From assembly GCA_964392445.1 (NCBI GenBank), contig CAYMPD010000003.1, forward strand, positions 29,133 through 93,132: a stretch of DNA of 64,000 nucleotides, read 5' to 3'. The number at the start of each line of letters is the position of its first letter. Position 1 is the first letter of the stretch. Shown here piece after piece: positions 13,684-57,402 of the stretch. The notes beneath the pieces were generated by a model. That model made no database searches. It was not told the DNA's origin and saw only the letters and a program-made list of their open reading frames with translations. The stretch is from an uncultured archaeon. Lineage in GTDB: Archaea; Aenigmatarchaeota; Aenigmatarchaeia; CG10238-14. The translations under genes and the position numbers were made by a program.

Positions 13684-13789
13684 TGCAGGGGGTGAGATTC
13701 GAACTCACGAACCGACTAACGGACAGAGTCCTAAGCATCGCAAACCTTTTCGATTTCCTGCGCCTTTGACCAGACTTGGCGACCCCTGC
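13684..13789 (-). tRNA. tRNA-Leu(TAG) with a 20-nt non-canonical intron at position 30/31 (13737-13756)
   Basis: Acceptor GCAGGGG/CCCCTGC, long variable arm, T arm GTGAG-TTCGAAT-CTCAC. Removing AAATCGAAAAGGTTTGCGAT gives anticodon arm CAGGG-CTTAGGA-CTCTG. BHB central helix CGCA:TGCG. Confidence 0.9.
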
Positions 13790-15282: not shown

Positions 15283-15301
15283 GTTGTTTTTAGGAATTAA
15301 G

Positions 15302-15389
15302 TGCTCCCGACGGGATTCGAACCCGTGTCCTCGGCTATCTTCCAGAAGTCGAAAGGCCGATATCCTTGGCCGGACTAGACTACGGGAGC
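15302..15389 (-). tRNA. tRNA-Glu(TTC) with a 13-nt canonical 37/38 intron (15337-15349)
   Basis: Acceptor GCTCCCG/CGGGAGC, anticodon stem TCGGC/GCCGA, loop CTTTCG|A, intron ACTTCTGGAAGAT with CTTT:GAAG central helix. Confidence 0.9.
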
Positions 15390-15394
15390 TTGAG

Positions 15395-15483
15395 TGGGCC
15401 GAACAGGATTTGAACCTGTGATTTCTGCCATTTTGATTCGAAAATCGTCAAGGCAGCGTCTTAACCAACTGGACCATCGGCCC
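15395..15483 (-). tRNA. tRNA-Val(GAC) with a 15-nt canonical 37/38 intron (15431-15445)
   Basis: Acceptor GGGCCGA/TCGGCCC, stem CTGCC/GGCAG, intron ATTTTCGAATCAAAA with TTGA:TCAA central helix and TT-TTCG-AA hairpin. Confidence 0.9.
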
Positions 15484-47874: not shown

Positions 47875-48303
47875 ATGAGTATGACCAACTTGAGAAAACT
47901 TTACATCTACACTGACGGTGGTGCAAGAGGCAATCCTGGTCCTGGTGCAATCGGTATTCTAATTTGTGACAGTAAAAAAAGATATCTTTACAAAGGAGGA
48001 GACTATATCGGTGAAACAACTAACAACCGAGCCGAGTATACTGCACTAATAGAAGCATTGAAGAAGGCAAGGAAATATTCCAAAGGCGAAGTTGAATGTT
48101 TTTCTGACAGTAAATTAATGGTCAAGCAACTCCAAGGCGAATACAAGGTCAAGAATTACTTCCTGAAGGAATTATATCAAAAAATCAAAGAATTAGAAAA
48201 GAATTTCAAAAGGGTTAATTATCACCATGTCAGACGAGAAGATACAGGAATACAGATTGTTGATGAGTTGTTGAATAAAGTTCTGGATGACAATGGGAAA
48301 TGA
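47875..48303 (+). CDS. rnhA: Ribonuclease HI
   Basis: YTDGGARGNPGP, TNNRAEY, FSDSKL, HVRRE...VDEL. Confidence 0.92.
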   Translation: MSMTNLRKLYIYTDGGARGNPGPGAIGILICDSKKRYLYKGGDYIGETTNNRAEYTALIEALKKARKYSKGEVECFSDSKLMVKQLQGEYKVKNYFLKELYQKIKELEKNFKRVNYHHVRREDTGIQIVDELLNKVLDDNGK

Positions 48304-54686: not shown

Positions 54687-55697
54687 TTAACCCCAAATAC
54701 CAACTAGTTCCTCCCCACATTTAGGGCATTTACCATCTTCAATTTTATTTTCAAGCATAGAACACCCATATCGTGTTATCAACAATTCTCCACAATTAGG
54801 ACAATAGGTATTATTCATGGGGTTCCCTGGATCACGGCCACTATAAGCATAAACGTATTTCAAGTGTTTCTTACCAATATCCCAACATTTCTTTAAAGTT
54901 TTTACACGAGTATAAGGAATATCTTTGCACTGATAGCTAGGAAAGAACCCAATAAACTGAATAGGAATATTTTCACTAAGATTGTTTTTTATCCACTTTA
55001 CTAATTCTTTGACCTTTTCTAAATCATCTCCGACTTCAGGGACAATCAGATCCGTCACTTCAACATGTACACCATTCTCATGATAAAGCTTCATCGTTTC
55101 AAGTATCTTCTCGCCATCAGGAACAGAACAATAGTCCTTAAGAAATTTCTTATCCAATGAACCTTTTACATCAACAACAGCAGCATCAAGGTACTTGGAA
55201 ATCTTCTTAGCAGGTTTAGTTGAAATATAACCATTGGTTACAAATACATTGTAAAGTCCTTCTTTCTTTGCCAACTTAGCAGTATCATGAGCATATTCAA
55301 AAAATATAGTGGGTTCTGTGTAAGTGTAAGCAATCCCATCACATCCCTTTTCAAGGGCAATGTCAATGATTTCATTAGGTGAAACCTTCTTTCCCCTAAT
55401 CTCTTTTGCCTGAGATATGTGCGGATTGCAACAAAATTTACATCTAAAATTACATCCAACTGTCGCGATCGAGAGTGACCGAGAACCAGGATGAAAATGG
55501 AAAAATGGTTTCTTTTCAATTGGATCAACTTGAATACTATTTAATTTCTCATAAACTAGGGAGTGTAGTTTACCATCAATATTCTTCCTAACATTACAAA
55601 AACCAGTCTTATCTTCTGATATTTTACATTCCCAAGGACAAAGGTGACACTTTACCTTCTTACCTTCCAATTTCTCATAAAACATAGCTTTTTTCAT
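54687..55697 (-). CDS. AmmeMemoRadiSam-type radical SAM enzyme
   Basis: Start MKKAMFYEKL; CHLCPWEC, DPIEKKP, GCNFRCKFC, YTYTEPT, TNG, CPNCG, CPKCG. Confidence 0.9.
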   Translation of the reverse strand: MKKAMFYEKLEGKKVKCHLCPWECKISEDKTGFCNVRKNIDGKLHSLVYEKLNSIQVDPIEKKPFFHFHPGSRSLSIATVGCNFRCKFCCNPHISQAKEIRGKKVSPNEIIDIALEKGCDGIAYTYTEPTIFFEYAHDTAKLAKKEGLYNVFVTNGYISTKPAKKISKYLDAAVVDVKGSLDKKFLKDYCSVPDGEKILETMKLYHENGVHVEVTDLIVPEVGDDLEKVKELVKWIKNNLSENIPIQFIGFFPSYQCKDIPYTRVKTLKKCWDIGKKHLKYVYAYSGRDPGNPMNNTYCPNCGELLITRYGCSMLENKIEDGKCPKCGEELVGIWG

Positions 55698-55755
55698 GCT
55701 ACCTAAATATATTACTTTAAAACAAATAATTAATAATCCAGTAAGGGGTGAGAAT

Positions 55756-56091
55756 ATGGTAAAAAAGAAAATCAACGTGAATATAGATCACAGCGAATCA
55801 GGATTTTTAGCAGATTATTTGGTAGTTTCCCATAATCAAAAGAAATTTGTCCTTGATTTCGTTCAGGTAACACCAAGGTTTGATAGAGTTGGTGATGAAA
55901 TGAAACAGTCTCTATCATACAAACATAAGACATTAATAGTAGACCCTGAAACAGCTAAAGGTATTCTTGAAATCTTGGGAGATAATATCAAAAAGTACGA
56001 GAAAAGATTCGATAAAATAAAAACTCAGAAAGGTAAACCTAAAAGTGAACCAGCAGGATATTCAGAAGAGGCGACAAGATATATTGGTTAA
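55756..56091 (+). CDS. DUF3467-like protein
   Basis: GGGGTGA SD; VSHNQKKFVLDF...IVDPETAK...L.DNIKKYEKRF. Confidence 0.7.
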   Translation: MVKKKINVNIDHSESGFLADYLVVSHNQKKFVLDFVQVTPRFDRVGDEMKQSLSYKHKTLIVDPETAKGILEILGDNIKKYEKRFDKIKTQKGKPKSEPAGYSEEATRYIG

Positions 56092-56108
56092 ATGGGAGGA
56101 GATATAAT

Positions 56109-56826
56109 TTGATAATAATGGGTATAGACGAGGCTGGTAGAAAACATCGAGTCCAATGATTCATGTTTACCAAGAGGCCCAGTCTTAGGTCCGATGGTTC
56201 TGTGCGGTTTAGCAGTAAGTGAAGAACAAGAGAAGGAATTAAGAAAAATCAAGGTAAAAGATTCCAAGATGCTGACCGCGGAAAAAAGAGAAGAACTTTC
56301 TGGAAAAATTGAAAAGATAGCGACACATACCGTAGTGATCAGAGTTCCTGCACATAAAATAGACACGAACAGGAAAAGAGGAGTTAATCTTAATCAGATC
56401 GAAGCCCTAAAAATGGCAGAAATTATCAACATGGTTAGACCGGACAAGGTTTACATTGATTCGCCCAGTTACAATAGTCATAAATTTACTGATTACTTGT
56501 TCTCAAAATTAGAAAATAAAAACACCGAGATAATTGCCGAGAATTACGCAGACAAAAAATATCCGGTCGTTTCTGCAGCTTCAATTATAGCAAAGGTTGA
56601 TAGAGATGGGCAGATTAAAAAATTAGAGAAGGAGTTAGGAGAACCCATTGGAATTGGCTATCCACATGACCAAATAACCATTCAACACTTGGAAAAATTA
56701 GCAAGAAAGAACAAGGGTAAGATGCCGAGGTATGTAAGATGTAGTTGGGATACTACTAGACAAATAATTAGGAAATATGAACAGAAGGGGTTAGGTGGAT
56801 TCTTCAAAAAAATTACTAAAAATTAA
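56109..56826 (+). CDS. rnhB: Ribonuclease HII, two exons (56109-56140 and 56175-56826), 227 aa after splicing
   Basis: GGGAGGA SD, TTG start. Spliced N-terminus MIIMGIDEAGRGPVLGPMV; also VKDSK, YIDS, ADKKYPVVSAASIIAKV, GYP, VRCSW. Confidence 0.9.
56141..56174 (+). other. 34-nt bulge-helix-bulge intron in rnhB mRNA
   Basis: TGGT-AG|A-AAACAT-C-GAGTC-CAAT-GATTC-ATGTTT-ACCA-AG|A: 4-bp central helix, two AGA bulges, 11-bp inner hairpin; excision restores the frame. Confidence 0.85.
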
Positions 56827-56847
56827 TCAAAAAAAAGGTTATTAACT

Positions 56848-57402
56848 ATGGAAGATGGCGAATTTTTAAAAAACAATATCGCTAATTTCATCACTTCAGT
56901 AAGAATATTATTTTCTTTTCTTTTTATTTATCTTGCATCAAAAGATCAAAGAATGGCATTTTTAGTATTGTATCTTATTTTGTATTTGAGTGACATTATT
57001 GATGGTAACCTAGCAAGGAAATTAAATATCGTATCAGAAAAAGGAAGAAAACTTGATGCAGTAGCTGATTATATTTTCCACAGTTTAACTGTTCTTTGTT
57101 TCGTTTATATTTTTAAGCAAGATATTTTTGACAATCTAATCTTTTTTTTAATTCCAATATTAAACTTCTTTATTCCCAAGATTTTCCACTTATTCGTGTT
57201 TAAAAAATATCCAATTGTAAGGATGAAAGGTTGGTTTTATACTTCATATGCGTTGGTTTTATTTCTGGTAATCTCTTTGGGTTTCGGTTTTAATAGATTT
57301 TTATTATTTTTCTTAATTTTATTTTCTTTTTTTGGATTAATCGAAGAAACAATCACTTATGTTAAAAAGTATAACTACTTAACTTCAAAAAAAGTCAACT
57401 AA
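56848..57402 (+). CDS. CDP-alcohol phosphatidyltransferase family protein
   Basis: ANFITSVR, SDIIDGNLARKLN...GRKLDAVAD signature. Confidence 0.88.
   Translation: MEDGEFLKNNIANFITSVRILFSFLFIYLASKDQRMAFLVLYLILYLSDIIDGNLARKLNIVSEKGRKLDAVADYIFHSLTVLCFVYIFKQDIFDNLIFFLIPILNFFIPKIFHLFVFKKYPIVRMKGWFYTSYALVLFLVISLGFGFNRFLLFFLILFSFFGLIEETITYVKKYNYLTSKKVN

Follow-up and report, generated by a model that had tools for sequence, protein, structure and literature searches.

The RNase HII gene and its insert

The window analysed here, a stretch of 64,000 nucleotides from the genome of an uncultured archaeon of the Aenigmatarchaeota (contig CAYMPD010000003.1), carries at positions 56109-56826 of the forward strand the gene for RNase HII (rnhB), split by a 34-nt insert at 56141-56174 that is very probably a genuine archaeal bulge-helix-bulge (BHB) intron, lying in the coding sequence of the sole RNase HII gene in this genome. 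The first exon (56109..56140) opens with a TTG codon 8 nt downstream of a Shine-Dalgarno-like GGGAGGA (56094..56100), and encodes MIIMGIDEAG together with the AG of an arginine codon, including the catalytic Asp-Glu of the DEAGRG motif; in same-genus relatives a GGTG box followed by TTG stands at the matching place. Read without interruption, the frame of this TTG gives MIIMGIDEAGR and then runs into an in-frame TGA at 56157-59. The second exon (56175..56826) supplies the last base of the arginine codon, continues from 56176 as GPVLGPMV in a frame that is +1 relative to exon 1 (translation P0001), and ends in a TAA stop at 56824-26. A mechanical list of open reading frames opens the gene at an internal ATG at 56194 (210 aa), and excision of the insert leaves 684 nt, that is 227 aa and a stop codon.

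Exon 2 matches positions 9-199 of the Pfam profile RNase_HII (PF01351; E = 1e-39), while an intron-less orthologue from the congener G001 spans positions 1-199; exon 1 contributes GIDEAGR here, and with it the gene matches the profile at full length, including the N-terminal DEAGRG block. The gene is present as a single copy in this genome, and each of the 41 genomes first searched likewise gave one rnhB match (41/41). Compared with two congeners, exon 2 shows a nonsynonymous divergence (dN) of 0.10 and 0.20 and a saturated synonymous divergence (dS), and these comparisons indicate an intact exon under purifying selection.

The insert and its flanks can be folded into two three-base bulges on opposite strands with a 4-bp helix between them. 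The 5' strand of this central helix is the exonic TGGT (56135..56138; the third base of an alanine codon plus a glycine codon), which pairs with the intronic ACCA (56169..56172), and each strand is followed by a bulge reading AGA (56139..56141 and 56173..56175). The predicted cuts fall after 56140 and 56174, the last A of the second bulge completing the arginine codon of DEAGRG within which the insert lies. Beside the 5' bulge stands an inner helix (h') of 11 bp, made up of AAACAT:ATGTTT (56142-47 with 56163-68; 6 bp) and GAGTC:GATTC (56149-53 with 56158-62; 5 bp, one of them G:U), closed by a CAAT loop (56154-57). The segment 56121-56190 folds at -20.4 kcal/mol against -13.3 +/- 2.3 in shuffled sequences (z = -3.1), with 1 of 200 shuffles folding as well and the native sequence beating the other 199. 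The minimum-energy fold shifts the central helix by one base (GGUA:UACC, with bulges GAA and AAGA), and the comparison of 67 genes described below supports the register given above, which is that of an earlier note on this DNA, over the minimum-energy one. That note had described the ribosome-binding sequence, the TTG start, the interrupted reading frame with its TGA at 56157 and the 227-aa product, statements which all hold, and each of the pairings and both bulges it listed are present. It had also called the outer helix weak; in strict register we find a single C:G pair there, and 3 bp if a 4-nt bulge is allowed. An assembly artefact, which it had wished to see excluded, is contradicted by a separately assembled Logan contig from a microbial-mat run (probably the source sample of the metagenome-assembled genome itself), which covers 55600-56894 with zero differences and confirms the insert in DNA. 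A genome-wide search found no similar copy of the intron elsewhere in this genome.

Distribution of inserts at the same site

Among 30 rnhB loci fetched from relatives, 23 read GIDEAGRG uninterrupted and 7 carry an insert, in every case within the same arginine codon and with a different sequence in each. Of 118 genomes from the order, 12 matched a search pattern for this interrupted form of rnhB, as did 18 of 371 from the phylum, whereas a reversed control pattern gave no match in either set. Scanned across prokaryotes with one genome per species, the pattern picked out 91 stretches; among the 80 of these whose results were available, about 60 are rnhB genes in which the frame of the second exon runs for about 200-220 aa. 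In all, at least 67 distinct insert-bearing rnhB genes (given 80 of the 91 stretches) were collected, from at least eight archaeal phyla (Aenigmatarchaeota, Woesearchaeota/Nanoarchaeota, Micrarchaeota, Altiarchaeota, Promethearchaeota (Asgard), Thermoplasmatota, Bathyarchaeia and Nitrososphaerota). Insert lengths range from 24 to 47 nt and show no preference for multiples of three (24, 23 and 21 inserts in the three residue classes), and all 21 of the inserts with a length divisible by three contain in-frame stops; judged by their sequences, the inserts are non-coding in behaviour.

The bacterial sequences matched by the pattern are genes other than rnhB; most have 0-1 central-helix pairs, and they served as a chance control. 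Seven of them (L052, L053, L065, L081, L096, L104 and L110, from Photobacterium, Vibrio and Oceanimonas) share a constant 43-nt gap and represent one conserved gene with the downstream translation G-x-IIGP-x-RSG...HIL, which appears to be the peptidyl-prolyl isomerase SurA; five of the seven have 0-1 of the 4 central pairs, and the two from Oceanimonas have 3 of 4 and no inner helix. In three relatives the rnhB match contained one TGA, which hinted at another intron site; this candidate was rejected, as the TGA is the stop codon and the genes are intact.

Covariation and the exact junction

Across the 67 genes, pairing in the central helix stands at 95.5%; two of its pairs are variable, with double-sided changes in 34 and 44 sequences. 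In the inner helix pairing reaches 90.8%, and each of the six pairs tested there shows compensatory changes. The covariation score of 0.457 compares with 0.155 +/- 0.009 in shuffles, none of the 500 reaching that value, and with at most 0.118 when the register is slid. Whichever of the four glycine codons is used, the intron matches its third base (G:C in 21 genes, U:G in 20, A:U in 11, C:G in 10, U:A in 3), so that the intron tracks synonymous changes in the exon. Because 42 of the central-helix pairs are G:U, the structure is a feature of this strand's RNA.

The 5' bulge reads AGA, AGT or AGC in 67/67 genes and the 3' bulge AAA or AGA in 67/67, the latter in part a product of the search pattern. 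Cutting after the second base of each bulge (AG/A), the rule applied in the earlier note, yields arginine in 67/67 genes and is the sole cut rule to do so; for the 23 genes with an AGT or AGC bulge it alone recovers the invariant arginine. In the window the same cut would regain the frame and yield Gly-Arg-Gly, as expected of a functional mature RNA. Moreover, the predicted ligation product is identical to the DNA of the closest listed congener (G001), which is 84% identical and intron-less (GGTAGAGGCCCAGT), and the predicted spliced N-terminus GIDEAGRGPVLGPMVLCGLAV is that of a 92%-identical, uninterrupted public homologue (P0003, which starts MGIDEAGRGPVLGPMVLCGLAV). The comparison of rnhB from relatives that the earlier note had called for thus turned up inserts with compensatory pairing preserved, not random degenerate ones, and its proposal of a BHB intron is supported by these covarying same-site inserts, by a junction equal to that of intron-less orthologues, by the EndA and RtcB genes described below and by the single rnhB copy.

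The codons flanking the intron (Gly-Ile-Asp-Glu and Val-Ile-Gly-Pro) are mutually complementary (alignment A1, columns 2-11 with 76-85). Pairing over these ten distal exon-exon positions, in which the Asp-Glu codons face those of Val-Ile, is 0.80-0.82 in carriers against 0.69 in 23 intron-less genes of the order, a comparison that ignores kinship and concerns pairing partly or largely fixed by the codons of the protein motif, and that is consequently a hint only. The insertion site may, on this evidence from exon sequences, be predisposed to hosting a BHB intron; in the window itself the distal helix contributes a little extra pairing.

Splicing machinery and proposed mechanism

The genome encodes both enzymes that removal of such an intron calls for: the tRNA-splicing endonuclease EndA, in one gene of 180 aa with domains PF01974 and PF02778 (G000:C6:35369-35908), and an RtcB-type ligase, also in one gene (PF01139, E = 2.8e-175; G000:C23:3012-4316). 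It is also rich in tRNA introns, since 20 of the 48 tRNA predictions made for this genome by ARAGORN in intron mode contain one. A genome-wide scan for BHB cores returned 27,457, reduced by an ORF-junction filter (open reading frames on either side of the core) to 458 candidates, most of them plain boundaries between genes. The scan picked up rnhB again, while the five best-looking others read as false positives; it was crude and uninformative on absence.

From the structure, its conservation and covariation and the exact junction, all directly observed, and from the presence of EndA and RtcB genes, we infer that rnhB mRNA is cleaved and ligated. The primary transcript would fold so that TGGT at the end of exon 1 pairs with ACCA at the 3' end of the intron, displaying the two three-base bulges on opposite strands, 4 bp apart, atop the intron hairpin. 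EndA would then cleave after the second base of each bulge, and RtcB would ligate the exons (GGT AG + A GGC, giving Gly-Arg-Gly) and probably circularise the 34-nt intron. The expected mRNA junction is GGCTGGTAG/AGGCCCAGTC (GGTAG/AGGCCC), the expected join of the circle is ACCAAG/AAAACATC, and a junction-spanning peptide of the spliced product should cover DEAGRGPVLGPM. Under this mechanism the 227-aa enzyme, with its catalytic Asp-Glu and GRG element, would be encoded by spliced mRNA only, whereas the unspliced message would give a 16-residue peptide or, at best, a dead protein begun at the methionine at 56194. Given that the insert occupies the same site in at least eight archaeal phyla, the message almost certainly must be cut and rejoined.

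Several points weigh against a spliced intron, however. Splicing of rnhB is a prediction from DNA sequence, in this organism and in the other carriers. The motif departs from the strict hBHBh' form in the outer exon-exon helix (h) beside the 3' bulge, which is weak in nearly all 67 genes (1-3 bp). As far as sequence can tell, it is a relaxed, bulge-helix-loop-like BHB, and because the outer helix is weak everywhere, a tolerant endonuclease would be required. The EndA found appears to be a single-subunit enzyme of alpha4-like architecture, and alpha4-type enzymes are classically held to be strict; a second subunit was not found by phmmer among all open reading frames, a search that a divergent beta subunit could escape. 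In DPANN archaea, loop-bearing alpha4 EndAs are reported to accompany disrupted tRNA genes (PMC5829648). The search pattern, in addition, fixed the site and the bulge letters, covers one site only, and so inflates the conservation of the bulges. Most relatives lack the insert, which means that the intron is dispensable and may be without a function of its own. Finally, the central helix is only 2/4 paired in G070 (L041, at G070:C47:1962-2027, and L114). There GGGG faces ACCA, yet the hairpin and exon 2 are intact; the mismatch may be tolerated, or may mark an intron heading to failure.

Alternative explanations

A decaying gene, in which a frameshifting insertion turned rnhB into a pseudogene, might be suspected from the broken frame, from the truncated 210-aa product given by gene callers and from the lack of the insert in most relatives. 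We regard this as extremely unlikely, because rnhB is the sole copy, its second exon is intact with the low dN and saturated dS given above, and random lesions would not hit precisely the same position in 67 genes from many phyla and keep a covarying structure there. No more credible is a DNA-level element, such as a miniature mobile insertion or its remnant, with a chance fold and no RNA processing. The insert is short, patchily distributed and flanked in this genome by 3-nt AGA repeats, as such an element might be, yet it has no other copy in the genome, most relatives lack the flanking repeat (AGT...AAA), and G:U pairs and pairing with exon bases are features of an RNA strand. The rnhB tree, moreover, groups carriers by phylum, which fits vertical descent and not the spread of a single element.

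Two further possibilities act on the message itself. Translational bypassing, as in gene 60 of phage T4, would carry the ribosome from a take-off AGA (56139-41) to a landing AGA (56173-75) without RNA splicing, and the identical codons 34 nt apart in the window, with a hairpin and a nearby stop between them, invite the comparison. However, the two codons match as AGA/AGA in only 18 of the 67 genes; in 23 the take-off codon would be serine (AGT/AGC) and in 48 the landing codon lysine (AAA), where the invariant arginine is needed, and a covarying 4-bp helix between exon and intron would have no role in hopping. Bypassing is accordingly exceedingly improbable. Alternatively, EndA might cleave the message and leave the halves unjoined, making the site one of mRNA decay or shut-off, as in the decay initiated by tRNA endonuclease in yeast, where TSEN cuts mRNAs without ligation (PMC10485636); the weak outer helix might also impede the geometry of ligation. 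Such a gene could never yield active enzyme. Against this stand the conservation of its exons, a junction at which the active site is restored exactly and the presence of RtcB in the genome, which leave decay very unlikely, and a BHB intron that is both cut and rejoined as the favoured explanation.

Evolutionary history of the probable rnhB intron

In the rnhB tree, intron-bearing genes cluster by phylum, which argues against a recent spread of one intron-bearing allele. Within the order, carriers are interleaved with non-carriers, requiring at least 7 state changes among 35 genes, and the rnhB of this genome has an intron-less gene as its sister. Introns from this genome, G003 and G023 (the last from another family) have AAAACA...TGTTT and a similar hairpin in common, and this shared sequence suggests an intron inherited from the ancestor of the order and lost repeatedly, each time precisely. 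Between phyla, the inner hairpins are too short and variable to tell homology of the introns from repeated gain at a favourable site.

More speculatively, the rnhB intron could be ancient, predating the major archaeal phyla and often lost since, and could gate RNase HII synthesis where it is kept, a scenario that we consider improbable though less so than any of the alternatives above. With the BHB starting 18 nt downstream of the initiation codon, splicing must outrun the first ribosomes. If gating were true, enzyme output would track spare EndA and RtcB capacity, and the unspliced message could give a dead product whose PIP box competes for PCNA. The motif in question is the C-terminal QKGLGGFF (56782..56805), a putative PIP box that fits the PCNA-binding pattern Qxx[LIVM]xx[FY][FY] of archaeal RNase HII. 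A product begun at the internal methionine at 56194 would retain QKGLGGFF without the catalytic Asp-Glu.

Relationship to known introns

The best-known precedent is the intron in the pre-mRNA of cbf5, the gene of the aCBF5 pseudouridine synthase, which occurs in Desulfurococcales and Sulfolobales (Yokobori 2009, PMC2738675). The likeness is considerable: both are short introns in an archaeal coding sequence with a relaxed BHB, both depend on the tRNA-splicing endonuclease and ligase (as a prediction in the case of rnhB), and both are patchily distributed, with gain and loss, and mis-annotated as frameshifts or truncated genes. Reportedly, the cbf5 intron was also the subject of work by Watanabe in 2002 and Yoshinari in 2006. 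However, the host genes are unrelated, the cbf5 intron is limited to two crenarchaeal orders with a heterotetrameric EndA, and its splicing was demonstrated experimentally, whereas the rnhB intron is known from genes in at least eight phyla and is accompanied here by a single-subunit EndA. With rnhB of Aenigmatarchaeota as its host instead of cbf5 of Crenarchaeota, the rnhB intron would work like the cbf5 intron and is not a member of its family.

The BHB introns of tRNAs and rRNAs (including hairpin mini-introns) share with it the pairing of exon and intron 3' end, the two three-base bulges 4 bp apart, the inner hairpin, the cut after the second bulge base, a size of 24-47 nt and presumably the same enzymes, in a genome that has many tRNA introns. 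They differ in that the host of the rnhB intron is an mRNA, whose frame and active-site codon rely on exact joining and on which ribosomes may compete with folding. A second archaeal mRNA with a BHB intron, HVO_1309 of Haloferax volcanii, was found spliced in RNA-seq (Schwarz 2020, PMC7714728; discussed in PMC10485636); it is cut by the splicing endonuclease, in another gene and lineage. The removal of short introns from HAC1 and XBP1 mRNAs by IRE1 and a tRNA ligase or RtcB is likewise catalysed by proteins, bypasses the spliceosome and changes the frame of a coding mRNA, but involves another endonuclease and other recognition hairpins, is eukaryotic and has a proven regulatory role, and is an analogy only.

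In 2009, pre-mRNA splicing was regarded as confirmed for no gene besides cbf5 (PMC2738675); a review from 2023 lists cbf5 and HVO_1309 and anticipates further cases, and a structural paper of 2025 cites the cbf5 work only. The searchable literature (subscription-only papers lying outside its scope) contained no paper linking RNase HII or rnhB to a BHB intron, and for splicing within an archaeal coding sequence it gave cbf5 as the single other gene. The kind of element is therefore known, and rnhB is a new and unusually widespread gene family for it. Occurring at one site in a core replication and repair gene of DPANN, Asgard, TACK-type and Thermoplasmatota archaea, it would turn the splicing of mRNA by the tRNA machinery from a crenarchaeal oddity into a trait of archaea in general. 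It would also offer a clean natural substrate for relaxed-BHB recognition outside tRNA, and it is relevant to the gain and exact loss of introns where there is no spliceosome.

There is also a consequence for annotation. This gene and several relatives 78-80% identical to it are recorded as proteins of 210 aa (P0002, P0013, P0018, P0020 and P0021), and the three of these whose sequences were considered (P0002, P0013 and P0018) begin at the same internal methionine (MVLCGL...). Gene callers appear to truncate intron-bearing rnhB systematically at this residue, and databases consequently hold RNase HII entries that are catalytically headless.

Other genes of the window

A second RNase H, of the other (RNase HI) type, is encoded 8 kb upstream of rnhB at 47875-48303 (+), where the sequence matches the Pfam profiles RNase_H (E = 2.7e-15) and RVT_3 (E = 4.7e-18). 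Enzymes of the RNase HI type are not known to incise at single embedded ribonucleotides, and ribonucleotide excision should therefore still depend on rnhB.

Three of the intron-containing tRNA genes predicted by ARAGORN in intron mode lie on the reverse strand of the window: tRNA-Pro with a 22-nt intron (13684-13789), tRNA-Glu(ttc) with a 13-nt intron (15301-15389) and tRNA-Val(gac) with a 15-nt intron (15394-15483). In its default mode the same program called 15301-15389 as tRNA-Arg(tcg) and missed the proline and valine genes.
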